Assembly (NCBI GenBank): GCA_041663665.1
Contig: JBAYMG010000004.1
Location: 8,559-72,558, forward strand
Direction: 5' to 3'
Origin: Candidatus Omnitrophota bacterium
GTDB taxonomy: Bacteria; Omnitrophota; Gorgyraeia; Gygaellales; Profunditerraquicolaceae
DNA: 64,000 nucleotides
Shown here: piece by piece, positions 51 through 46,172 of the stretch
How the letters are laid out: every line of letters begins with the position of its first letter
Numbering within the stretch: the stretch's first letter is position 1
The notes under the pieces: generated by a model
The model's database searches: none
Seen by the model: the letters and a program-made list of their open reading frames with translations, nothing else
What the model was told of the DNA's origin: nothing
Translations under genes and position numbers: made by a program

Positions 51-1847
51 TTGATTAAGTTATCAGCTTTGGCTGTTTCTTCCGCTGTTCTTTTATTGCT
101 TTTTACTACTTTTCATGGCAGTATCCGGTATTTTAAGGCAGAATCACATTTAATTGACAGGGTTATATTCTTTACCGAATTAGTTTTATCAGCGTATGTA
201 TTGTATTTAGGGTTAAAGTTTAAGCGTCTTTGGGTGACGCTATTTATTTTGCTTCAGGCAGTTTTAATGCTTTATTTTGAATATTCTTCCGACTGGAGAG
301 TTGTTGCCGAATACAATTTATTTATTGATAAATTTTCAATCTTGATGTCTTTAATTGTCGGCATTATTGGTAGTTTAATCTGCGTATATGCTGTTAGTTA
401 TATGCGCGATTTTCATAAGAAGTATCATCAAGAGATAGAGGACCGGCGTAGTTTTTTCTTTTTTGTTATTTTTGTTTTTCTTTCGGCGATGTTCGGGGTA
501 ATTTTTTCAAATAATCTTCTTTGGCTTTATTTTTTCTGGGAGATAACTACTGTTTGTTCGTTTCTGCTCATTGGTTATAAGAGGTCAGAGGAGTCCAGAA
601 AGAATGCTTTTCATGCGTTAGAGATTAATTTATTAGGCGGTCTTGCATTTTTGTTGGCAATTATCTATTTTTACAAGGCAACCGGTAGCGTTGAATTGAA
701 TAAAGTTATGCTGCTAGGCAAGGCCTGGGCCTTGATCCCTGTGATGTTGATTTGTTTTGCCGGGTTAACCAAATCTGCGCAGCTTCCTTTTTCTTCCTGG
801 CTATTAGGGGCAATGGTTGCACCCACTCCGGTATCGGCACTTTTGCATTCTAGCACGATGGTTAAAGCCGGGGTGTATATAATTTTACGTTTTGCTGCAA
901 TTTTGCAAGGGACTATGGCAGGTTTTGCCCTGGCTTTAATAGGAGGAGTAACTTTTTTAGTTGCTTCATTTGTGGCGATTTCGCAAAATGATGCTAAAAA
1001 AGTTTTAGCCTATTCGACTATTGCTAACCTGGGGTTAATTGTCTTATGCGCTGGTATTGGCACCTATGAAGCAATGTGGGCTGCGATTTTACTCATTATG
1101 TTTCACGCAATTGCTAAGTGCCTCTTATTTCTTTGCGTGGGCACGGTTGAGCATGGGATACACAGTCGTAATATTGAGGATATGTCAGGGTTAATCATTG
1201 CTATGCCTAAGTTGTCTATTTTGATGCAAGTGGGTATGGCAGGTATGTTCTTAGCGCCATTCGGCATGTTAATCAGTAAGTGGGCGGTGCTTAAGGCCTT
1301 GGTGGATTATAATCCTTTGTTGGCCATATTTGTAGTTTTCGGAAGCTCGGTTACGTTGTTTTTCTGGGTTAAGTGGATGGGTAAATTAATTATTGTTACT
1401 GAACCAAGAGAAGAAATTGAACATGGGGTAGGTAAAGGGCAATGGTTTTCTTTAACCAGCCTTTCAATATTAACTATTGGTATCTGCGGGTTTTTCCCGC
1501 TAGTCTCCTCCATTTTAATTGAACCGTATTGTCTTGAAATTTATGCCCGGACCATTACGATGAGCAAGGGAAATATTGAAATTATGTCGATTATGTTAGC
1601 ACTGGTTATGCTTTTCCCGTTGAGCTTTATTAATTATGGAAAACGGGTTAAAGTTGTCGATGCCTATTTGGGTGGGGCTAATGTTAATAATAATGTACAG
1701 TTTCGCGGTTCTGCCGGTGCAATTAAAAATATGTCGATGAATAATTATTACCTTCAGGATTATTTCAGCGAAAAGAGGTTATTTAAATTCGGAGTAATTA
1801 TTACTGTTGTTCTGGTGATTGCCATGTTGGGTTTATCTTTACTATGA
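51..1847 (+). CDS. echA: Ech-type hydrogenase membrane subunit EchA (NuoL/MrpA-like antiporter-type subunit)
   Basis: 598-aa polytopic membrane protein with the NuoL/M/N-Mrp signature 'WLLGAMVAPTPVSALLHSSTMVKAGVYIILRF'. First gene of an echABCDEF-ordered cluster. Confidence 0.8.
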   Translation: MIKLSALAVSSAVLLLLFTTFHGSIRYFKAESHLIDRVIFFTELVLSAYVLYLGLKFKRLWVTLFILLQAVLMLYFEYSSDWRVVAEYNLFIDKFSILMSLIVGIIGSLICVYAVSYMRDFHKKYHQEIEDRRSFFFFVIFVFLSAMFGVIFSNNLLWLYFFWEITTVCSFLLIGYKRSEESRKNAFHALEINLLGGLAFLLAIIYFYKATGSVELNKVMLLGKAWALIPVMLICFAGLTKSAQLPFSSWLLGAMVAPTPVSALLHSSTMVKAGVYIILRFAAILQGTMAGFALALIGGVTFLVASFVAISQNDAKKVLAYSTIANLGLIVLCAGIGTYEAMWAAILLIMFHAIAKCLLFLCVGTVEHGIHSRNIEDMSGLIIAMPKLSILMQVGMAGMFLAPFGMLISKWAVLKALVDYNPLLAIFVVFGSSVTLFFWVKWMGKLIIVTEPREEIEHGVGKGQWFSLTSLSILTIGICGFFPLVSSILIEPYCLEIYARTITMSKGNIEIMSIMLALVMLFPLSFINYGKRVKVVDAYLGGANVNNNVQFRGSAGAIKNMSMNNYYLQDYFSEKRLFKFGVIITVVLVIAMLGLSLL

Positions 1848-2698
1848 ATATCTTCCTGAATATTTTACTTTATTTGATTTCAGCGCCTTTAATCGGAGGG
1901 CTCTTGTCAGGTATAGATAGGAAAATTACCGCGCGCATGCAATCTAGGATCGGCCCGCCTATCCTGCAGCCGTTTTTTGATGTTTTAAAATTAATTCAAA
2001 AGGATAACCTGGTAGTCAGGAGATCTCAAAATTTTTATATCGGGTTTTTTCTTATTTTGGTTATTTTTACCGGTGGTTTATTTTTTACCGGCAAGGACAT
2101 ACTGTTGGTAATTTTTGCTTTTACTTTGGCAGCTATATTTTTTGTTTTGGCTGGATTTAAGGCTAGTTCACCCTATAGTTTTATCGGTGCTCAGAGAGAG
2201 TTGCTGCAAATGATGGCTTATGAGCCGATTATTATTTTAAGCGCAGTGGGCATGTATATGGTTACGCGCAGTTTTTATGTAGTTGATATCATAGCCTATG
2301 GCAAGCCTTTAATCAATTATTTACCGGGTATATTTTTTGGTTTGTTGTATATTTTAGCCATGAAGTTCAGGAAATCACCCTTTGATTTATCTACTTCACA
2401 TCATGCCCACCAGGAATTAGTCAAAGGAATCACTACGGAGTTTTCCGGCAGGACGTTGGCAATGATTGAGATTGCACATTGGTTTGAAAATATGTTCATT
2501 TTAGGTATTATCTATTTGTTTTTCGCTAGTTTTCCCCTAGCCGGTATACTTTTGAGCTTATTGTCCTATTTTTTAGTTATTCTTATTGATAATACTTTTG
2601 CCAGAGTTAAATGGCAATTAGCTTTGTTCAGTTCCTGGTTAGTTGCTTTAATTTTTGGTTTTGGAAATCTTTTGATTTTGTTTATTTTACCTAAATAA
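1844..2698 (+). CDS. echB: Ech hydrogenase membrane subunit EchB (NuoH/HycD-like)
   Basis: 284-aa membrane protein whose N-terminal 'RMQSRIGPPILQPFFDVLKLIQKD' resembles NuoH/HycD; overlaps echA stop by 4 nt. Confidence 0.8.
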   Translation: MNIFLNILLYLISAPLIGGLLSGIDRKITARMQSRIGPPILQPFFDVLKLIQKDNLVVRRSQNFYIGFFLILVIFTGGLFFTGKDILLVIFAFTLAAIFFVLAGFKASSPYSFIGAQRELLQMMAYEPIIILSAVGMYMVTRSFYVVDIIAYGKPLINYLPGIFFGLLYILAMKFRKSPFDLSTSHHAHQELVKGITTEFSGRTLAMIEIAHWFENMFILGIIYLFFASFPLAGILLSLLSYFLVILIDNTFARVKWQLALFSSWLVALIFGFGNLLILFILPK

Positions 2699-2700
2699 AA

Positions 2701-3621
2701 ATGTCATATTTAAAAAAATCTCCCTGGGTTATTCATTATGATGCCTCAAGCTGTAATGGCTGCGATATCGAGGTTTTGGCTTGTCTTACTCCGGTTTATG
2801 ATTTGGAACGTTTTGGGATAATTAATACCGGTAACCCAAAGCATGCGGACATATTCTTAGTTACCGGTTCGGTAAATGAACAGAATAAAGAAGTAATCCA
2901 GAATATTTATCTTCAGATACCTGATCCTAAGGTGGTATTAGCTTTGGGTGTTTGTGCGACTTCCGGAGGCGTATTCCGCGAATGTTATAATGTTTCCGGA
3001 GGGGTGGACAAGATTATTCCGGTTGATGTTTATGTGCCGGGGTGCGCTGTACGCCCGGAGGCGATAATTGACGGGGTGGTTAAAGGGTTAAAAATTCTTG
3101 AAGAAAAACATAAAATGTTTAAAGCCATTAGCGGCGGAAAAGAAAAAGTAGATATTTGCCAAGCGGTTGTTGAAGACGATCAAGAGATTCTTAGCTTGCA
3201 GAAATTAGCCTATCAAGGAGAGGCGGAGATTTATAATGATTTTAGCCTTTCTCCGCTGGTTCAAACGTTAGGGGAACTGAAAAATGATTTTAAAGATATG
3301 CTTTTCTTAAAAAGCACTATGCATGGTAAAATTATCGGTTCAGTACGGGCGTATGTGCAGCAGGGCACTTGTCATATTGGCCGGGTAATCGTACATCCAA
3401 GTTATCAGAATTATGGATTAGGCAAAAAGTTAGTACACCAGATTGAATCCCGTTTTCCTCAAGCCACTAGGTATGAGGTTTTTACCGGGCATAAGAGCCG
3501 GCGTAATATTTATTTTTATCAAAGCTTAGGGTATAAAATATTTAAACGGGAAATGGTTTCCGAGCTGCGTGACAGGGTTTTTATGGAGAAGTTGGGATTA
3601 ATGGGGTTAAAAAATGATTGA
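2701..3621 (+). CDS. echC: Ech hydrogenase small subunit EchC (NuoB-like, [4Fe-4S]) with C-terminal GNAT acetyltransferase-like domain
   Basis: N-terminal ~137 aa match NuoB/EchC ('SCNGCDIEVLACLTPVYDLERFGI', 'GVCATSGG', 'VDVYVPGCAVRPEAI'). C-terminal ~165 aa show a GNAT fold signature ('GRVIVHPSYQNYGLGKKLVHQIE', 'IYFYQSLGYKI'). Single continuous frame. Confidence 0.75.
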   Translation: MSYLKKSPWVIHYDASSCNGCDIEVLACLTPVYDLERFGIINTGNPKHADIFLVTGSVNEQNKEVIQNIYLQIPDPKVVLALGVCATSGGVFRECYNVSGGVDKIIPVDVYVPGCAVRPEAIIDGVVKGLKILEEKHKMFKAISGGKEKVDICQAVVEDDQEILSLQKLAYQGEAEIYNDFSLSPLVQTLGELKNDFKDMLFLKSTMHGKIIGSVRAYVQQGTCHIGRVIVHPSYQNYGLGKKLVHQIESRFPQATRYEVFTGHKSRRNIYFYQSLGYKIFKREMVSELRDRVFMEKLGLMGLKND

Positions 3622-3967
3622 AGAGCAGAAGTTGATCGGAATTGAAATTAAAGATTTATTAAGCCAGGTTGGTGATCTGCATAGTTCCGGCCATAGATTG
3701 GTGCAGATTGGTTGTACAAAATTGCCTGAACACTTGGAGGTAAATTATTCTTTTGATAAAGGGTACCGGTTGGTTAATTTAAAGATTAAGGTTATAGATT
3801 TAAATATTGAAGTTCCCAGCGTAAGCAATATCTATTGGTGTGCATTTCTATATGAAAACGAAATTCACGATTTATTTGGCGTAAAATTTAAGGATATTGC
3901 TGTAGATTATAAAGGTAATTTTTATCGTACTTCAATAAAAAGAGGTTTTAATCCGCAAAATGAATAA
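3614..3967 (+). CDS. echD: Ech hydrogenase subunit EchD (NuoC-like)
   Basis: 117-aa protein in NuoC/EchD position between small and large subunits; overlapping start/stop with neighbours. Confidence 0.65.
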   Translation: MIEEQKLIGIEIKDLLSQVGDLHSSGHRLVQIGCTKLPEHLEVNYSFDKGYRLVNLKIKVIDLNIEVPSVSNIYWCAFLYENEIHDLFGVKFKDIAVDYKGNFYRTSIKRGFNPQNE

Positions 3968-5045
3968 TCCTAAGAGAACGATTATCCCTTTTGGCCCGCA
4001 ACATCCGATTTTGCCTGAGCCGATCCATTTGGATTTGGTAGTTGAAGATGAGAAAGTAATCCAGGCTATTCCTTCGTTAGGTTTTATCCATCGTGGCCTT
4101 GAAAAGCTGGTTGAGAAAAAAGATTTTATCGATTTTGTTTATATTGCCGAAAGAATTTGCGGTATCTGCAGCTTTATTCATGGCCTGACATATTGTCTTG
4201 CCATTGAAGAAATTATGCAGATAGAGGTACCTAAAAGAGCTGCTTATCTTCGCGTAATCTGGTCGGAATTATCGCGAATCCATAGCCATCTTTTATGGCT
4301 AGGGTTGACTGCTGATGCTTTTGGTTTTGAGGCACTTTTTATGCATACCTGGAAATTAAGGGAAAAGATTTTAGATATTATCGAGGAAACTACCGGCGGA
4401 CGGGTTATTTTTGGTTCGGCTAAAATCGGTGGAGTAAGAAAAGATATCCTGCCTGAGAAATTAGATGAAATTATTAAAAGCTTGGAGAAGTATTCTCAGG
4501 AGGTTAAAGAGATTACCGATGTTTTTATAAATGACAGCTCTGTTAAGCATCGTTTAGTCGGAGTCGGAGTGTTAAGCAAAGAAGATGCTTATTTACTGGG
4601 GGCTGTCGGGCCAACACTTAGGGCAAGCGGAGTGAGTTTAGATACGCGTAAATTAGGTTATGCTGCCTATCGAGATATTGATTTTAATCCGATAATTGAA
4701 ACAGCTGGGGATAGCTATAGCCGTTGTCTGGTTAGAATCAGGGAAATTTTTCAATCCGTCGATATAATTAAGCAGGCAGTTGGCAGGATGGATTCAGGAG
4801 ATATTGAAGTTAAAGTAAGCGGTACGCCTAAGGGTGAATTTTTTGCCAGGACTGAGCAGCCCAGGGGTGAAGTGATTTATTATGTTTTAGCTGATGGGTC
4901 GCGATTTCTACAAAGATTAAGAGTACGTACTCCTACTTTTGCCAATATCCCCGCTTTAGTTAAGTTAATTCCCGGATGTCAATTGGCTGATGTGCCGATC
5001 TTAGTTTTAACCATTGATCCCTGTATAAGTTGTACGGAGCGTTAA
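3960..5045 (+). CDS. echE: [NiFe] hydrogenase large subunit, group 4 (EchE/NuoD-like)
   Basis: N-terminal Ni-binding motif 'RICGICSFIH' and C-terminal 'DPCISCTER' (DPCxxCxxR) diagnostic of [NiFe] large subunits; 361 aa fits EchE. Confidence 0.85.
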   Translation: MNNPKRTIIPFGPQHPILPEPIHLDLVVEDEKVIQAIPSLGFIHRGLEKLVEKKDFIDFVYIAERICGICSFIHGLTYCLAIEEIMQIEVPKRAAYLRVIWSELSRIHSHLLWLGLTADAFGFEALFMHTWKLREKILDIIEETTGGRVIFGSAKIGGVRKDILPEKLDEIIKSLEKYSQEVKEITDVFINDSSVKHRLVGVGVLSKEDAYLLGAVGPTLRASGVSLDTRKLGYAAYRDIDFNPIIETAGDSYSRCLVRIREIFQSVDIIKQAVGRMDSGDIEVKVSGTPKGEFFARTEQPRGEVIYYVLADGSRFLQRLRVRTPTFANIPALVKLIPGCQLADVPILVLTIDPCISCTER

Positions 5046-5046
5046 G

Positions 5047-5385
5047 ATGAAATTATTTGTTATGGCAAAAAAGGTCTTAAGGAGTTTGTGTTCGAAGCCG
5101 GCTACATTTGGTTATCCTTTTGTGCCCAAAACTTATTATAAAAATACACGCGGTAGTATTGTTATAAATATTTCAAAATGTATTTATTGTTCGACTTGCC
5201 AGAGAAAATGCCCGGCTTGCGCCATTGTGGTAACAAAATCTGAGAAACAGTGGAAAATTGACCGCCTGCGCTGTGTGTCTTGCGGATATTGTGTGGATGT
5301 CTGTCCGGTTAAGTGCCTGGCTATGGATAATAATTATTCTTCTTCGACTTTAAAAAGAGAGGAGGAAATTTTTAGGCGTGCATGA
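5047..5385 (+). CDS. echF: Ech hydrogenase 2x[4Fe-4S] ferredoxin subunit EchF (NuoI-like)
   Basis: Two CxxCxxCxxxCP motifs ('CIYCSTCQRKCPAC', 'CVSCGYCVDVCPVKC'). Confidence 0.8.
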   Translation: MKLFVMAKKVLRSLCSKPATFGYPFVPKTYYKNTRGSIVINISKCIYCSTCQRKCPACAIVVTKSEKQWKIDRLRCVSCGYCVDVCPVKCLAMDNNYSSSTLKREEEIFRRA

Positions 5386-5716
5386 ATATCATATTGTTAA
5401 AAAGATTATTGAAGAGGTTTTAGCCAAAGATAATAATCAAGATGTTATTGAGATTTCTTTGTGTGCTAGTCAATCAAGCGGGCTAGACCCGGATTCAATT
5501 AGGCTCTATTTTGAAGATATCCGGCAAGAGCATCCCTGCCTGAGAGATAGTGAATTAAAGATTAGCTTAGTTAAAGTTAAGTTGCATTGCCCGAAATGTA
5601 ATTTAGATTTCGAACGCCAACAAAAAGATTTTTCCTGCCCAATATGCTCTTGCGAATCTGAGCGTTCTGCATCACAAAAAGAAATTTATGTTGATAAACT
5701 GGTATTTAGGCCTTAA
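5378..5716 (+). CDS. hypA: Hydrogenase nickel insertion protein HypA
   Basis: Starts 'MHEYHI', ~112 aa, Zn-finger CxxC...CxxC ('CPKCN...CPICSC'). Confidence 0.8.
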   Translation: MHEYHIVKKIIEEVLAKDNNQDVIEISLCASQSSGLDPDSIRLYFEDIRQEHPCLRDSELKISLVKVKLHCPKCNLDFERQQKDFSCPICSCESERSASQKEIYVDKLVFRP

Positions 5717-5718
5717 GT

Positions 5719-7023
5719 ATGTGTTATGCCATTCCCGGGAAAATAGAATCGATTAATGCCAAAATGGTTACGGTAGATTATTTTGGCGAGAAGAAAAAAG
5801 CTTTGAATGAGCTAACCGGATTATCTGTTGGTGATTATGTTTATGCCCAGGGCGGCTATCTTATCTCCAAGGTTCCTCAGCAACAGGCAGAAGAGTCGCT
5901 TTCTATTTGGAAAGATTTATTTTTTAGCCTTAAGGAGCTGGACAATCGCCTTGCCCAATATCCTAATGATAAAAAAGATAGCCAAAGCAGGTCTGCAAAG
6001 ATATTCCGCAAAGTGACTCAGGCGCAAGATCCTTCTGTAGATGAGCTAGGATATTTGCTTTCGCTTACCGAGAAAAACGAATTAGAGGAATTTTTTAAAT
6101 TTTCCAATTCTTTACGTAAAAGCTATCTTAGTAACTCTTGTTGTGTGCATGGAATTATTGAGATCTCTAACTATTGCCAACGGCAATGTAGTTATTGCGG
6201 AATTTCTACGCAGAATAAAAACCTTAAGCGTTATAAGATGACTAAGGAGGAGATTATTCAAAGCGTAGAAGAAGCTGTAAATATTTATGGTTTTAAGGCT
6301 TTGGTTTTGCAAAGCGGAGAGAGTGACGCCTATGGTATTGAGGAATTAGTTGAGATTATCAGTCAGATAAAGAAAAGATTTGCGGTCTTAATTTTTATTA
6401 GCTTCGGCGAGATTGGGAAAGAAGGGTTAGCTAAATTGTATCAGGCTGGAGCTAGGGGCCTTTTGATGCGTTTTGAAACCAGCAATCCTGATTTGTATGA
6501 GAAGTTGCATCCTGGCGCATCTTTGGATGAGAGGTTATTACAGATTGATTACGCCTACAATTTAGGTTATTTGATCATTACCGGTGCGCTCATCGGTTTA
6601 CCGGGTCAAACCGGTCAGGATATAATTAATGATATCCGGCTTGCCCGTAAGCTCCATGCTGAAATGTTTAGTTTCGGGCCGTTTATCAGGCACCCGGAGA
6701 CTCCGCTGGCCAAAGCAGTGGAATCTAAAGAAGAAGATATCTTAAAGGTTTTAGCTTTGTGCCGATTATTGGCAGATGCGCAAACTAAGATTTTAGTAAC
6801 TACGGGATTTGAGAGCATTAGTAACCAAGCCCGCGAAAAAGGCCTTGCTTGTGGAGGAAATTCGGTTATGCTGAATATAACGCCTTTAAAATTCCGCAGG
6901 CTGTATAATATTTATCCGAATCGGGCACATGAGCAGGAGACGATTGAAACTCAGATTAAGGATGTTTTGGATCTATTGAAAAGCATGGGCAGGGCGCCTA
7001 CTGATTTAGGGGTAAGTGTTTAA
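5719..7023 (+). CDS. Fusion protein: N-terminal HypC-like [NiFe] maturation chaperone domain + HydE-like radical SAM enzyme
   Basis: First ~55 aa 'MCYAIPGKIESINAKMVTVDYFG...VGDYVYAQGGYLISKV' match HypC/HupF (MC[LY]AIP). From ~aa 110 a HydE-type N-terminus and radical SAM core ('LSLTEKNELEEFFKFSNSLRKSY...GIIEISNYCQRQCSYCGIS', CxxxCxxC). Length 434 aa = HypC (~80) + linker + HydE (~300). Confidence 0.7.
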   Translation: MCYAIPGKIESINAKMVTVDYFGEKKKALNELTGLSVGDYVYAQGGYLISKVPQQQAEESLSIWKDLFFSLKELDNRLAQYPNDKKDSQSRSAKIFRKVTQAQDPSVDELGYLLSLTEKNELEEFFKFSNSLRKSYLSNSCCVHGIIEISNYCQRQCSYCGISTQNKNLKRYKMTKEEIIQSVEEAVNIYGFKALVLQSGESDAYGIEELVEIISQIKKRFAVLIFISFGEIGKEGLAKLYQAGARGLLMRFETSNPDLYEKLHPGASLDERLLQIDYAYNLGYLIITGALIGLPGQTGQDIINDIRLARKLHAEMFSFGPFIRHPETPLAKAVESKEEDILKVLALCRLLADAQTKILVTTGFESISNQAREKGLACGGNSVMLNITPLKFRRLYNIYPNRAHEQETIETQIKDVLDLLKSMGRAPTDLGVSV

Positions 7024-7049: not shown

Positions 7050-7667
7050 ATGAATATCTGGCAGTTGGTTAAAGTAGGCGGTTTTACTATGGTGCTGCTT
7101 TTATTGGCGTCAGTATTATCTCTGGCAATTATTCTGGAAAGAATTATTTCTTATCGTAATAAAACTAGAATAAAAAGAAAAGATTTTATGTTAAGAATAC
7201 GTGAAGCATTAAAAAGGCAGGGAATAAAGCCGGCTATTGAGATCTGCAAAACTACCAACACTCCTTTTGCCCAGGTAGCTTACGCCGGTTTAAGTTTCTT
7301 TGATTGCAGTGAAAAAGAGATATCCAATAATATGGAGCGTCAGATCATAATCGAAACTACAATTCTTGAACGTTTTACTTCGATCATCGGTACAATCGGA
7401 AGTATCTCGGTTTACGTGGGGTTATTCGGAACAGTTTTAGGGATTATCCGGGCTTTTCATGATATATCAGTCAGTGGTTCCGGAGGAATCAGTGTAGTAA
7501 TCAGCGGGATATCCGAAGCTTTGGCTTGCACTGCTGCCGGGCTTTGTGTTGCAGTTCCGGCGGTAATTGCCTATAACTATTTTATGAAGAAGATTGATGA
7601 TTTCATTAAAGATATGGAACTGGTGGCTTCTGAGTCTATGGATTTAATCAGCGTAATAAAAAAATGA
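7050..7667 (+). CDS. MotA/TolQ/ExbB family proton channel protein
   Basis: 205 aa, 3 TM segments, conserved C-terminal TM region typical of ExbB/TolQ. Confidence 0.75.
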   Translation: MNIWQLVKVGGFTMVLLLLASVLSLAIILERIISYRNKTRIKRKDFMLRIREALKRQGIKPAIEICKTTNTPFAQVAYAGLSFFDCSEKEISNNMERQIIIETTILERFTSIIGTIGSISVYVGLFGTVLGIIRAFHDISVSGSGGISVVISGISEALACTAAGLCVAVPAVIAYNYFMKKIDDFIKDMELVASESMDLISVIKK

Positions 7668-8068
7668 GACAGTTAGCCAGAAAACAGAAACTGATTGCTG
7701 AAATAAATATCACTCCGTTTACGGATGTTATTTTAGTTCTTTTGATTATTTTCATGATTACGACTCCGCTTATTTTGCAGTCAAATATCCGGGTCAATTT
7801 ACCGACTGCGGCAACTGGAAAACCGATAGAACAGGCCGTAAAAATTAATATCATGATCACTAATGAGGGCCTGATCTATTTAGATAATAAGCAGGTTTTA
7901 AAAAAAACGCTTAAGTCTGAGGTTGCCAGGTTAAGGCAAGTTAACCCCGAGCTGGAAGTGATTTTATTCTCGGATAAAATGGTCAGGTTTAAGGATATCG
8001 TCAGTCTGTTGGATATCTTTAATGAGCTGGGAATAAAAAACTTAAATATTGCCACAAAAGTAGAATAA
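7664..8068 (+). CDS. ExbD/TolR family biopolymer transport protein
   Basis: 134 aa, single N-terminal TM ('INITPFTDVILVLLIIFMITTP'), translationally coupled to upstream ExbB-like gene. Confidence 0.7.
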   Translation: MRQLARKQKLIAEINITPFTDVILVLLIIFMITTPLILQSNIRVNLPTAATGKPIEQAVKINIMITNEGLIYLDNKQVLKKTLKSEVARLRQVNPELEVILFSDKMVRFKDIVSLLDIFNELGIKNLNIATKVE

Positions 8069-8447: not shown

Positions 8448-9191
8448 ATGAGTGTTCCAGAGCTTCCAGATATATTTGCAATTCTTGCAACTAAATTTCC
8501 CGAAAACAATTTTTTTAAATTTGTTTATCTTTGGGAAAATATTAGCTATTCTCTAGTCCTGGTTTTAATTTTAGGAGTTTTTGCTTTTTTTGCCTGCCGC
8601 AAAAAGAGTTTAATCCCAGGCCGCCTGCAAAATGTTGCTGAAGCTATTGTTGGTGGTTTAGATGATTTTGTCTGCGGGATTCTTGGGCCGAGCGGGAGGA
8701 GATATACCCCTTTTATCGGAACGTTATTTATCTACATTCTTTTTATGAACCTAGCCGGTTTAATTCCTTTTATTAAATCCCCGACTGCCAGTTGGTCGAC
8801 GACATTGGCTTTGGCTTTGTGTGTATTTTTTTATGTGCAGTATGCGGCAATCAAAGAACTGGGTTTTCTGGGGTATTTAGATCATTTGGCGGGTAAGCCT
8901 CGCGGGGTTTTAGCTTTTACAATTATCATGCCGTTATTTATGTTTGTTCTACATATTGTTACTGAGTTGATCCGCCCGTTAAGTTTATCTTTACGTTTGC
9001 GCGGCAATATCTGGGGGGATGAAATTTTGCTAGGGTTACTTTCTGGTTTTGGTATCACGGGCTTACCGCTTTTATTTTTTAATATGCTTATGGCAACTTT
9101 AGCTGCAGTTGTCCAGGCTGCAGTTTTTTGTTTATTGACTACTATTTATTTTGCACTTGTTTTAAATCACGAAGAAGAAACTGTACACTAA
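8448..9191 (+). CDS. atpB: F0F1 ATP synthase subunit a
   Basis: Conserved 'LSLSLRLRGNIWGDE' (a-subunit Arg motif), polytopic. Confidence 0.85.
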   Translation: MSVPELPDIFAILATKFPENNFFKFVYLWENISYSLVLVLILGVFAFFACRKKSLIPGRLQNVAEAIVGGLDDFVCGILGPSGRRYTPFIGTLFIYILFMNLAGLIPFIKSPTASWSTTLALALCVFFYVQYAAIKELGFLGYLDHLAGKPRGVLAFTIIMPLFMFVLHIVTELIRPLSLSLRLRGNIWGDEILLGLLSGFGITGLPLLFFNMLMATLAAVVQAAVFCLLTTIYFALVLNHEEETVH

Positions 9192-9203
9192 AGGGAGGAT
9201 GGA

Positions 9204-9431
9204 ATGGATTATAAAACAGCTTTAGATTTTGGTGTTCCGTTAGCACTAGGCATAGCGGCGTTTGGTTCTGCAATTGGTTTGGGGATAGCAGTGTCTGCAG
9301 CTTTAACCGGTGTGAGCAGGCAGCCGGAAGCAAGCAATAAGATAATGACAATGTTGATTATTGGCTGCGCTTTTATTGAAGCAATTACTATTTATGTTTT
9401 GGTATTTGCTTTTATGTATGCCAGTAAATAA
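9204..9431 (+). CDS. atpE: F0F1 ATP synthase subunit c
   Basis: 75 aa hairpin proteolipid with 'GLGIAVSAALTGVSRQPEA'. Confidence 0.85.
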   Translation: MDYKTALDFGVPLALGIAAFGSAIGLGIAVSAALTGVSRQPEASNKIMTMLIIGCAFIEAITIYVLVFAFMYASK

Positions 9432-9474
9432 TTTCCCCTTGTAAACTAGATACATAAAGGAAAGAGAAATTAGT

Positions 9475-9972
9475 ATGGAAATTTTAAAGATGCTTAGCGC
9501 AAGTGAAATCTTTGCGCAGATAATAAGTTTTATTCTTTTGTTAGTTCTGTTGCGTTTATTCGCTTGGAAAAAAATCCTTCTGCTTTTAGACCAGCGTAAA
9601 GAAAAAATTAGTTCTGAGTTTAAGGGAATAGAGGATACTAAGCTTGAGCTTGCCCGGCTTAAAAGTGATTATGAGTTGAAGCTTTCAACTGTTGCCAGTC
9701 AGGCCCAGGCAAAAATTGACGAATCTATTGAGCAGGCTCGGAAAATAAATGAGCAGATGCGTAAGAAGGCTCATGAAGAGGCTCAGGATATTATTACTGA
9801 TGCCCGTCTTCAGGTAAAATATGAGGTTTCCAAGGTTCAAGAGCAGATTAAAGAGAAAGTCGTTGATATTGCTTTGGGGGCCGCTAGATCAGTGATTCAG
9901 GAAAAACTTACTGAAGAGGGTGATCGTAAAATAGTTGAAGATTTTATTCGTCAACTGGATAAAACAGAATGA
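9475..9972 (+). CDS. atpF: F0F1 ATP synthase subunit b
   Basis: N-terminal TM then long charged coiled coil; operon position. Confidence 0.75.
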   Translation: MEILKMLSASEIFAQIISFILLLVLLRLFAWKKILLLLDQRKEKISSEFKGIEDTKLELARLKSDYELKLSTVASQAQAKIDESIEQARKINEQMRKKAHEEAQDIITDARLQVKYEVSKVQEQIKEKVVDIALGAARSVIQEKLTEEGDRKIVEDFIRQLDKTE

Positions 9973-10517
9973 TAAAGAATAAGGTTGTAGTCAGTAGGTA
10001 TGCTGAGGCTTTAATAAACTTTGCCCGGGCTAATTGCGGGACGGATAAAGTTTTGGAAGATTTGATAACAATCAAGAATATCGTAAGGGATAATCCGGGT
10101 TTTAAAAATTTGATGGATAATCCTGAGATATCTTATCATGAAAAATGTTCGGTTATTGATGCGGTTATTGAAACCGATACCGCTAACGAAGTGAGTTATT
10201 TTTTAAAGCTGCTTATCGAGAAAAAACGTTTTGACATTTTTATGGATGTAGCTGAGTATCTGCGTACAAAATATAGCCATCATGGGCAGGTGGACGTATT
10301 ACTTAAAACCGCTTTTCCTCTGGAGTTAGATTTAATTAAAAGAATTGAAGTTGCTTTGAAAGCTAAGTTTAAGCAGGATTTACGGTTTTATATAGATTTA
10401 GACGGGAGTTTATTGGGCGGGGTGCAGGTGATTATTGGCAATAAGATTATTGATGGTTCAGTGAGAAAGCGGTTGGAAGAATTAAGAGATAAACTAACTA
10501 CAGTAAAGATGTATTGA
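9969..10517 (+). CDS. atpH: F0F1 ATP synthase subunit delta
   Basis: 182 aa, OSCP/delta-like, between b and alpha. Confidence 0.75.
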   Translation: MIKNKVVVSRYAEALINFARANCGTDKVLEDLITIKNIVRDNPGFKNLMDNPEISYHEKCSVIDAVIETDTANEVSYFLKLLIEKKRFDIFMDVAEYLRTKYSHHGQVDVLLKTAFPLELDLIKRIEVALKAKFKQDLRFYIDLDGSLLGGVQVIIGNKIIDGSVRKRLEELRDKLTTVKMY

Positions 10518-10561
10518 TTTTATCAAAAGTACTTTTGCTGTATTTTTAAAGAGAGGTTAAG

Positions 10562-12085
10562 ATGGTTTTAAAACCGGAAGAAGTTACAGTGATAATCGAA
10601 AAAGAGCTTCAAAAATATCAATCTCGCCTTCGTACTGAATCAATCGGTACGGTAATCCAGGTAGGGGATACTATTGCCCGTATTTATGGCTTAGATGATG
10701 TAATGATGGGGGAACTGGTAGAGTTTTCGGATAATATTATGGGTATGGTCTTAAACTTGGAAGAAGATAGTGTCGGGGTAGTCATCTTCGGAACGGATAA
10801 TCCGGATAAGAATATTCGTGAAGGTGATTTAGTTAAGCGTACCGGAAAAATTGTTCAGGTGCCCGTAGGCAATGCGCTAGTCGGCAGGGTAGTTAATGGT
10901 TTAGGCCGGCCGATTGATGGCAAGGGGCAGATTAATGCCCAGAAATTTAGGCCGATAGAATTCAGTGCTGCGAATGTGGTTGAACGGCAGCCGGTTAATC
11001 AACCATTGCAGACCGGAATTAAAGCGGTTGATGCCATGACTCCTATCGGCCGCGGCCAGCGCGAATTGATTATTGGCGATCGCCAGACCGGTAAAACTTC
11101 AATTGCTATTGATGCGATAATTAATCAAAAAGGAAAAGATGTTTATTGTATTTATTGTGCTATCGGCCAGAAATTATCCAGCGTGGTTGCGGTAAATGAA
11201 GTGCTGAAGAAGTATGGGGCGATGGAGTATACTACTATTGTCAGTGCTTCTAGCCGTGCCTCAGCAAGCTTGCAATACCTTGCTCCTTATGCTGCCACAG
11301 CTATGGCTGAAGAATTTATGTATTCCGGGAAACACGTTTTAGTGGTTTATGATGACTTATCCAAGCATGCTCAGGCTTATCGGCAGCTGTCTTTGCTGCT
11401 CAGGCGGCCCCCGGGCCGGGAAGCTTATCCGGGTGATATTTTTTATCTGCATTCTAGACTTCTCGAACGCAGCGCTAAATTGAATGATGCTTTGGGTGCT
11501 GGTTCAATAACTGCGATTCCGATTGTTGAAACTCAAGCCGGGGATATTTCTAGTTATATTCCGACGAATGTCATCTCAATTACTGATGGCCAGATTTATT
11601 TAGAGAGTGATTTGTTTTACGCCGGCGTGCGTCCGGCGGTAAATGTCGGTTTGTCTGTTTCCCGCGTGGGAGGAAAAGCACAAAGTAAATTAATGCGCCA
11701 GGTGGCTTCGAAATTGAGGCTGGATTTAGCCCAGTATCGTGAGCTGGTGGCCTTTACGCAGTTTGGAACAGACCTGGATAAGACGACTCAGGCGCAGTTA
11801 ACTCGCGGTGAAAGAATGGTGGAAATATTAAAGCAAGTGCAGTATGAACCTTTGGATGTAACCAGGCAGATAATTGTTATTTATGCCGGGACCAATGGTT
11901 ATTTGGACGATTTACCTGTTAATTCAATTAAAAAATTTGAAATCGAACTTTATAAATTTATCGATACTAAATATCCTGAAATTCAGGAGGAGTTGGCCGT
12001 AAAGAATAACCTGGATGCCGACCTTAAAAATAAATTGGATAGTTTAATTGTTGATTTTAAAAAAGAATTTTTAGCCATAGCTTAA
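10562..12085 (+). CDS. atpA: F0F1 ATP synthase subunit alpha
   Basis: P-loop 'GDRQTGKT', highly conserved alpha sequence throughout. Confidence 0.95.
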
Positions 12086-12092
12086 AAAATAT

Positions 12093-14352
<2,260 letters not shown>

Positions 14353-14353
14353 A

Positions 14354-14602
14354 ATGGCTAAGTCTTTTCATGTCGGTATTTATTCAAAAGACAAGATAGT
14401 GTATGAAGGTAAGGCAATTTATCTGGTTGCTCCTTCTGTAGAGGGTTCTCTGGGCATTTTAGCTGACCATGCTGCCATGGTTGTTAAATTATTAAACGGT
14501 AAAATTACTCTGCGCACCCCAGATGGAAATATTAGTTTAATTGATTCTTCAGGCAATGGATTCCTCGAAGTATTGCATAATCAAGTGACCTTGCTTTTAT
14601 AA
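14354..14602 (+). CDS. atpC: F0F1 ATP synthase subunit epsilon (short form)
   Basis: Internal ATG at 14354 ('MAKSFHVGIYSKDKIVYEGKA...') right after atpD stop; the longer annotated ORF from 14264 overlaps atpD. 82 aa = beta-sandwich domain only. Confidence 0.65.
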   Translation: MAKSFHVGIYSKDKIVYEGKAIYLVAPSVEGSLGILADHAAMVVKLLNGKITLRTPDGNISLIDSSGNGFLEVLHNQVTLLL

Positions 14603-45879: not shown

Positions 45880-45952
45880 GGGCCTCTAGCTCATCAGGTA
45901 GAGCACCACACTTTTAATGTGGTTGTGCCGCGTTCGAGTCGCGGGAGGCTCA
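45880..45952 (+). tRNA. tRNA-Lys (anticodon TTT)
   Basis: 73-nt cloverleaf: acceptor GGGCCTC/GAGGCTC, D-arm TAGCTCATCAGGTAGAGC, anticodon loop CTTTTAA, T-arm GCGTTCGAGTCGC; no encoded CCA. Confidence 0.85.
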
Positions 45953-45983
45953 GTAAAATTTATCAGGAAAATGCCTGTTCTAA

Positions 45984-46065
45984 GGGCGGATGGCGAAATT
46001 GGCAGACGCGATAGCCTTAGGAGCTATTGGGGCAACCCTTGGAGGTTCAAATCCTCTTCCGCCCA
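45984..46065 (+). tRNA. tRNA-Leu (anticodon TAG)
   Basis: 82 nt with long variable arm; acceptor GGGCGGA/TCCGCCC, D-arm TGGCGAAATTGGCAGACGC, anticodon loop CTTAGGA, T-loop GGTTCAAATCC. Confidence 0.8.
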
Positions 46066-46098
46066 AGAAAATAAGGCGAAAAATTTATTGCTTTACTT

Positions 46099-46172
<74 letters not shown>

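Follow-up and report, generated by a model that had tools for sequence, protein, structure and literature searches.

The stretch of DNA analyzed here, 64,000 nucleotides of contig JBAYMG010000004.1 from a Candidatus Omnitrophota bacterium (positions 8,559 to 72,558 of the forward strand; hereafter the window), raises the question of why the small subunit of a hydrogenase should carry an acetyltransferase-like domain. The third gene of an echABCDEF-hypA operon encodes a single 306-residue polypeptide, in which a NuoB/EchC-type [4Fe-4S] subunit is followed by a GNAT domain. Among the relatives of respiratory complex I, Ech-type hydrogenases are the simplest, and they have a central part in how fermenters and syntrophs conserve energy; we know of no description of a central metabolite controlling such an enzyme directly. 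A GNAT domain rigidly held on the electron-transfer subunit would offer a concrete and testable handle on control of this kind. We propose that a small stand-alone GNAT gene probably entered an Ech operon by a single in-frame insertion between echC and echD, and that it would since have been inherited as the C-terminal domain of the [4Fe-4S] small subunit. The results fit an old, context-adapted and geometrically constrained accessory module that has been under selection in many lineages and is optional for the enzyme.

Both halves of the protein were assigned in a sequence-only reading of the window, and both assignments hold, with Pfam scores above the curated cut-offs; the motifs quoted in that reading were all found where it placed them, in one uninterrupted frame of 306 codons. 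The first half matches PF01058 (Oxidored_q6) over residues 18-128 with E=1.8e-30 and 105.8 bits against a cut-off of 27, and matches the NCBIfam NuoB subfamily NF005012 with 135.8 bits against 116. The cysteine ligands of the cluster lie in the motifs SSCNGCD (C18 and C21), GVCATSGG (C85) and PGCAV (C115); they are invariant across 121 homologues and align with the motifs of MbhJ from the membrane-bound hydrogenase of Pyrococcus furiosus. The nearest solved chains are MbhJ itself (6CFW; E=3.7e-47, 56% identity) and HycG of the Escherichia coli formate hydrogenlyase (7Z0S; 2.7e-37), and comparison of the NuoB half with 6CFW_J in Foldseek gave a target-normalized TM-score of 0.77. A NuoD-like large subunit with both NiFe CxxC pairs and NuoL/H/C/I-like partners are encoded alongside the fusion gene, and these are kept in all fused loci.

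The second half matches three GNAT profiles above threshold over approximately residues 193-287: PF00583 (44.4 bits, cut-off 20.7), PF13508 (44.6, cut-off 27) and PF13673 (43.8, cut-off 23.6). No Pfam match other than GNAT was found over residues 137-306. An AlphaFold2 (AF2) model of the window protein, which rests on 121 homologues and has a mean predicted local distance difference test score (pLDDT) of 82.7, gives the GNAT half a pLDDT of mostly 90-97 and the full predicted topology β1-α1-α2-β2-β3-β4-α3-β5-α4-β6-β7. Foldseek comparison of this half gave target-normalized TM-scores of 0.77-0.78 for PaiA (1TIQ), 0.81 for 3FNC, 0.68 for 4E2A and 0.69 for RimI (4JWP). Within the acetyl-CoA pyrophosphate loop (Q/R-x-x-G-x-G/A, between β4 and α3), G239 never varies among 121 fused proteins, in which Q236 and G241 reach at least 90% conservation; the loop and the core are equally conserved in fused and unfused relatives. 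By profile and predicted fold, the second half is a bona fide member of the GNAT superfamily, of no characterized family.

RimI, the N-alpha-acetyltransferase of ribosomal protein S18, shares the fold and has a glutamate (β5) and a tyrosine (α4) at equivalent motif positions, where its mechanism uses Glu103 as the general base and Tyr115 as the general acid (PMC3347575). The corresponding candidate residues, E259 and Y273, are both present in the window copy, and acetyl transfer by this copy is plausible because both are there. An orthologue of RimI was considered and rejected, as against TIGR01575 the full protein scores 22.8 bits and the domain 24.6, far below the cut-off of 86.4.

The fusion is not restricted to this genome. 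Searching 5.8 billion proteins yielded over 120 clusters (61-84% identity), all of them with PF01058 as well as GNAT domains. They derive from NCBI, JGI, ENA and Logan assemblies, some under the names Omnitrophica, Chitinispirillaceae or Fibrobacter. The window's own 306-residue protein was not returned at 100% in this search, the best match being 84%, while the product of the HypC-radical S-adenosylmethionine (SAM) gene of the same contig did match at 100%; the 306-residue entry may be missing or masked. A scan of one genome per species with the GNAT half as the query gave 14 loci in which GNAT is fused to NuoB, each in an echABC(GNAT)DEF-hypA context. Their hosts are Omnitrophota, metagenome-assembled genomes (MAGs) labelled Planctomycetes, Fibrobacterota (Chitinispirillaceae and Fibrobacter) and Lentisphaerae. 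A metagenome scan with EchE gave 29 further fused loci. In all 43 of these independently assembled loci the junction is open and the fusion occupies the identical position in the operon; an unfused echC-GNAT-echD arrangement was seen in none of the loci. Four metagenome loci have a split or partial GNAT part, at contig ends or at probable sequencing frameshifts.

The EchC-GNAT fusion is not rare, and databases already contain hundreds of such sequences under plain NuoB or EchC names. Public entries are automatically annotated as 'NuoB' or 'ech hydrogenase subunit C', labels that omit the second domain and leave it mostly unnamed; a single entry reads 'Ni,Fe-hydrogenase III small subunit/GNAT superfamily N-acetyltransferase'. 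No publication on the fusion was found in the literature on Ech and energy-converting hydrogenases, NuoB or Omnitrophota combined with acetyltransferase or acetyl-CoA, and no report of a CoA-dependent domain on a NuoB-family protein was found either.

The geometry of the junction is strictly kept. In the AF2 model the C-terminal helix of the NuoB half is continuous and is followed by a linker of six residues, after which the first GNAT strand starts. The spacing from C115 to Q167 is 52 residues in 121 of 121 fused proteins. In sequence, the junction is the least conserved stretch of these proteins, with a mean identity of 42%. An internal start that would give a separate GNAT protein was also considered; the methionine at 139 of the window is not a conserved one, lysine being the majority residue there, and no signal of this kind was found.

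The origin of the domain was traced through a distinctive and widespread family motif, LQKLAYxSEAEIYNDFxIPPLxQT. Among 1.84 billion representatives searched, 2355 matched with E<1e-3 and 129 with E<1e-30, and lengths range from 119 to 510 residues among the best 150 listed. Most family members are stand-alone proteins of about 155 residues. Their hosts include Paenibacillus, Alicyclobacillus, Geobacter, Desulfobacterota, Methanobacterium, Methanoperedens and Bacteroidales, aerobes and anaerobes alike. The stand-alone proteins are 45-57% identical to the GNAT part of the window protein and have the same length and the same acetyl-CoA loop. Fusions to NuoB account for 2 of the 150 best representatives. 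In a neighbor-joining (NJ) tree of 318 GNAT domains, built without support values, 123 of 124 fused tips fall into a single clade that contains no unfused copy, and this grouping points to descent of the fused copies from a single fusion event. The divergent Omnitrophota lineage L016/P0085 has a GNAT part equidistant (58%) from fused and unfused copies and lacks the R-x-R signature described below; it may be a long branch, or it may reflect domain replacement or a second acquisition. Base composition shows no sign of a recent insertion, the NuoB part having a G+C at third codon positions of 0.391 and the GNAT part one of 0.392. No second, stand-alone copy of the family was seen in the 14 genomes with a fused copy, a scan that depends on exact peptide patterns and is weak evidence for the Ech-linked role proposed below.

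The domain appears to have changed after fusion. In a column comparison of 137 fused and 197 unfused GNAT domains, position 273 in α4 is tyrosine in 196 of the 197 unfused domains compared to 61% of the fused ones, where phenylalanine (25%) and histidine (8%) also occur. Position 259 is glutamate in 82% of fused and 87% of unfused domains. Glutamine replaces it in 20 of the 137 fused domains, and 18 of those 20 also have F273; all six Fibrobacterota genome loci (Fibrobacter and Chitinispirillaceae) combine Q259 with F273, and the window's nearest genomic relatives, L001 and L002, have His273. In addition, E176 is present in 100% of fused domains compared to 52% of unfused ones, and R290 and R292 form an R-x-R motif in 110 of the 137 fused domains, at positions where the tabulated unfused copies have hydrophobic residues. 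In GNAT proteins the α1 and β6-β7 regions form the acceptor side, and in many small members they are also a dimer interface. By analogy, E176 at the end of α1 and R290/R292 in the β6-β7 hairpin would lie on the acceptor side.

Selection on the domain persists. For sequence pairs with unsaturated synonymous divergence, the ratio of nonsynonymous to synonymous substitution rates (dN/dS) is 0.05-0.16 in the GNAT part and 0.02-0.06 in the NuoB part, and the low value for the GNAT part also holds in the F273 lineage, which has neither the tyrosine nor the glutamate. The GNAT part evolves 3-5 times faster than the NuoB part. The GNAT domain is thus under purifying selection even though the tyrosine or the glutamate has been replaced in about 40% of the fused clade. 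As E259 and Y273 are substituted under continued selection, binding rather than transfer would be the common denominator of the fused copies.

Based on these observations, we favor an accessory role, linked to Ech and dependent on acetyl-CoA or CoA binding, to which we give about an even chance. The domain would be placed with a fixed geometry on Ech's cytoplasmic peripheral arm and bind acetyl-CoA or CoA there, either to sense their state or to acetylate a nearby target, possible targets being a lysine or the N-terminus, either on an Ech subunit or on the ferredoxin donor. A metabolic rationale may be that pyruvate:ferredoxin oxidoreductase yields acetyl-CoA together with reduced ferredoxin and that Ech consumes the reduced ferredoxin. 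The R-x-R motif, E176 and the relaxation at Y273/E259, all specific to the fused clade, count in favor of such a role.

Several observations limit this reading or weigh against it. First, 32 of the 80 metagenomic loci with an EchE 62-85% identical to that of the window have a plain EchC. This protein is about 145-165 residues long and ends 6-37 residues past the NuoB domain, with echD directly after it; no frameshifted or truncated remnants of GNAT were seen in these operons. In an NJ tree of EchE some plain operons fall in basal groups and several are nested among fused ones, with plain-versus-fused EchE identities of 89% (L126/L112), 83% (L133/L109), 82% (L106/L088) and 81% (L117/L085), compared to identities among fused operons as low as 61% (median 70%). 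Given a single origin of the fused GNAT, the nested plain operons imply at least four recent clean losses of the domain, an exact number being provisional with NJ trees that carry no support values. Near-identical operons with and without the domain exist, and because very close Ech operons have a plain EchC, the domain is evidently dispensable, that is, it should not be required for Ech catalysis or assembly. Second, the relaxation at Y273, confined to the fused clade, limits any functional claim. Third, no conserved extra gene accompanies the fusion, and no acceptor or partner emerges. Fourth, members of the GNAT family are joined to unrelated enzymes, and their gene neighborhoods are not conserved; given this promiscuity, the fusion by itself is weak evidence of functional coupling. 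The clade at the same time supplies its own natural controls, in the form of fused, catalytically substituted and domain-less versions of near-identical operons.

Among the alternatives, the one that survives best is an autonomous small-molecule or general protein acetyltransferase that rides on EchC, keeps its ancestral job and gains from the fusion only co-expression or membrane localization. Such an enzyme would agree with a family that is mostly stand-alone, at about 155 residues, in aerobes as well as anaerobes, with the several clean losses from Ech operons, and with the retention of E259 and Y273 in the window copy. It would also agree with the variety of fusion partners of the family, which comprise TrpF (4 of 150 representatives), chorismate mutase (3), IGPS (1), a glyoxalase/VOC domain, SAM-methyltransferases, a 4Fe-4S protein and a second GNAT, and with the neighborhoods of unfused family genes, in which no gene family recurs beyond lineage-level synteny (open reading frames (ORFs) within 4 kb of 57 members). 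However, the tyrosine is relaxed only in the fused clade, and Q259 and F273 occur together in 18 of 137 domains while dN/dS remains low; replacement of these residues at low dN/dS means that the ancestral chemistry is unlikely to be conserved throughout the fused clade. The clade-specific arginines and the invariant junction length also suggest adaptation to a new context. We therefore regard an autonomous enzyme as unlikely, though a candidate of some weight. If it proves correct, the locus would serve as a warning not to infer function from 'Rosetta stone' fusions of promiscuous GNAT modules.

The same heterogeneity of partners means that no substrate can be deduced from them. The SAM-methyltransferase fusions occur in Asgard MAGs, and loci in which the family has partners other than NuoB include L014, L020, L026, L029 and L038 (Asgard MAGs) as well as L061 and L064 (Prolixibacteraceae/Bacteroidales). 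In Bacillota MAGs (L035-L037 and L043) a GNAT of this family stands behind a Cys-rich (4Fe-4S-like) N-terminal region of about 245 residues. A TrpG-like gene adjoins the Asgard copies, and together with the TrpF, chorismate mutase and IGPS fusions it hints at a link of the unfused family to aromatic amino-acid metabolism, one too slight to build on. No characterized close homologue turned up in the PDB by single-sequence or profile search; the matches were uncharacterized or distant GNATs, the nearest being 2ATR (profile E 4.8e-13), RibT (5XXR; 3.4e-11), SACOL1063 (5JPH) and YpeA (2PDO). Their substrates are unrelated or uncharacterized, and none is transferable to the window GNAT.

A more specific form of the Ech-linked role can also be considered, in which the domain would act as a built-in sensor or local acetyltransferase that reads the acetyl-CoA/CoA ratio and tunes ferredoxin-driven H2 evolution to the flux through pyruvate:ferredoxin oxidoreductase. 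Where the tyrosine or glutamate has been lost, it would be a purely regulatory pseudoenzyme that binds acetyl-CoA. Its action may include acetylation of a lysine or N-terminus close to where ferredoxin docks or electrons enter, or of ferredoxin itself. As a complete proposal, this is tentative and unlikely.

A neutral or decaying passenger on its way to loss would account for the repeated clean losses, for relaxed catalytic residues in about 40% of copies and for the faster evolution of the GNAT part. However, every informative pair gives a dN/dS of 0.05-0.16, lineages from several phyla share an acetyl-CoA loop and numerous core positions that are either invariant or conserved to at least 90%, the fold is predicted at a pLDDT of 90-97, and the plain operons showed no remnant of the domain, frameshifted or truncated. 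A passenger is therefore very improbable.

Very improbable, too, is a role in maturation or assembly together with HypA and the HypC-radical SAM protein, for example in handling acyl-CoA during cofactor or cluster assembly. The fusion gene shares its operon with hypA and, in 9 of 15 genome-derived fused operons (the 14 loci and the window), with the HypC-radical SAM gene, and a motif scan found no signature motifs of hypD, hypE or hypF in the 64-kb window. However, L002, L005, L008 and L024 lack the HypC-radical SAM gene at this place. The gene is also found behind group-3-type [NiFe] operons whose small subunit has no GNAT, and alongside a plain EchC in L124. Its presence in 9 of 15 operons and its GNAT-less hydrogenase neighbors rule out an obligatory linkage between the two genes, and the existence of near-identical Ech operons without the GNAT domain argues against a maturation role. 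The least credible alternative, an assembly or annotation artefact in which a missed stop or frameshift has joined echC to a small GNAT gene, as the sequence-only reading had allowed, has nothing beyond its a priori possibility in its favor and is excluded as far as sequence allows by the open frame in the window, in 43 loci assembled independently, with different assemblers, from different samples, and in over 120 clusters, and by a junction length that is invariant in 121 of 121 proteins.

Compared to known systems, the fusion has precedents in part. First, the six-subunit Ech hydrogenase EchABCDEF has the same six-gene order, the same NuoL/H/B/C/D/I-like products, a large subunit that has the NiFe CxxC motifs and lacks a C-terminal extension, and a hyp gene after the operon, but the window EchC is about twice the usual length through its C-terminal GNAT. 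We take Methanosarcina barkeri, Thermoanaerobacter and Desulfovibrio to be the reference organisms for this enzyme. Second, HycG, with 255 residues, is a precedent for a C-terminal extension on a NuoB-type subunit, but both HycG and MbhJ are without a GNAT or CoA-binding domain. Third, the NuoBCD and NuoCD proteins of complex I (NF009808 is among the profile matches) are precedents for fusions with NuoB-family subunits; in these, neighboring core subunits are joined, whereas EchC-GNAT adds a domain that is foreign to the complex.

In each respect tested, the operon around the fusion gene is an ordinary predicted Ech-type group 4 [NiFe] hydrogenase operon. Its gene content and gene order and the JGI label of subunit C are consistent with membership of HydDB group 4e. 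The features are collected in the table below. The G+C content of the window is 40%. The ORF listed for echA opens with TTG near the edge of the window, so that the real start may lie upstream; echA has the identical position in every fused locus. The TGA of the fusion gene (3619-3621) and the ATG of echD (3614) share an overlap of 8 nt, and no antisense ORF of at least 60 residues runs across 2701..3621. The echE product stops right behind its second CxxC pair (DPCISCTER-stop), without the C-terminal extension for endopeptidase cleavage, and no hycI-like gene is present in the ech operon.

Table. Features of the ech operon and of the EchC-GNAT fusion gene, in window coordinates.
Feature	Position	Strand	Evidence
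echA, NuoL/Mrp-antiporter-like membrane subunit	51..1847	+	PF00361 2.8e-59, PF00662
echB, NuoH-like membrane subunit	1844..2698	+	PF00146 1.2e-43; operon conservation
echC-GNAT fusion gene, 306 aa	2701..3621	+	one frame, ATG to TGA
NuoB/EchC [4Fe-4S] domain, aa 1-136	2701..3108	+	PF01058; cluster ligands C18, C21, C85, C115
Junction: NuoB C-terminal helix (aa 119-144) and linker (aa 145-150); first GNAT strand from aa 151	3055..3150	+	AF2 model
GNAT domain, aa 151-298	3151..3594	+	PF00583, PF13508, PF13673; AF2; Foldseek
Acetyl-CoA pyrophosphate loop, Q236-N-Y-G-L-G241	3406..3423	+	sequence
E259, strand β5, candidate general-base position	3475..3477	+	inferred from RimI mechanism (PMC3347575)
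Y273, helix α4, motif FYQSLGY, candidate general-acid position	3517..3519	+	RimI motif position
echD, NuoC-like subunit	3614..3967	+	PF00329 6.5e-10
echE, [NiFe] large subunit, NuoD-like	3960..5045	+	PF00346 1.2e-64, PF00374 9.3e-14; motifs RICGIC, DPCISCTER
echF, 2x[4Fe-4S] ferredoxin-like subunit, NuoI-like	5047..5385	+	Fer4 family matches
hypA, nickel insertion chaperone	5378..5716	+	PF01155 2e-18
hypC fused to HydE-like radical SAM gene	5719..7023	+	PF01455, PF04055

The HypC-radical SAM protein behind hypA is itself a fusion. It has 434 residues, with HypC/HupF at residues 1-64 followed by a HydE-like radical SAM domain that scores 235.8 bits against the HydE profile TIGR03956, below the cut-off of 254.6. 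Over 120 clusters, from Omnitrophota, Margulisbacteria and Saganbacteria, share this fusion, and no publication on it was found. Besides the window, loci that carry the gene are L003, L004, L016, L021, L025, L027, L030, L032, L078-L081, L083 and L124, and in L078 a second radical SAM/BATS (HydG-like) gene stands behind it. The joining of a [NiFe] chaperone domain to a homologue of an [FeFe]-type maturase is an odd pairing, which may bear on an anaerobic route to the CO ligand.

Farther downstream on the same strand, an ExbB/ExbD gene pair (MotA/TolQ-type proton channel; 7050-8068) adjoins the hydrogenase and hyp genes. Such a pair is likewise present in L002 (10631-11691), L005 (3261-4315) and L079/L080 (3157-4204); its placement varies between 3' of hypA and 5' of echA, and it is also found 5' of a group-3 [NiFe] operon. 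Soon after this block lies an apparent F-type ATP synthase operon (8448-14600, + strand), judged from ORF sizes, gene order and one translation. A cluster of genes for tRNA-Lys, tRNA-Leu and tRNA-Gly is located at 45880-46172 on the + strand.

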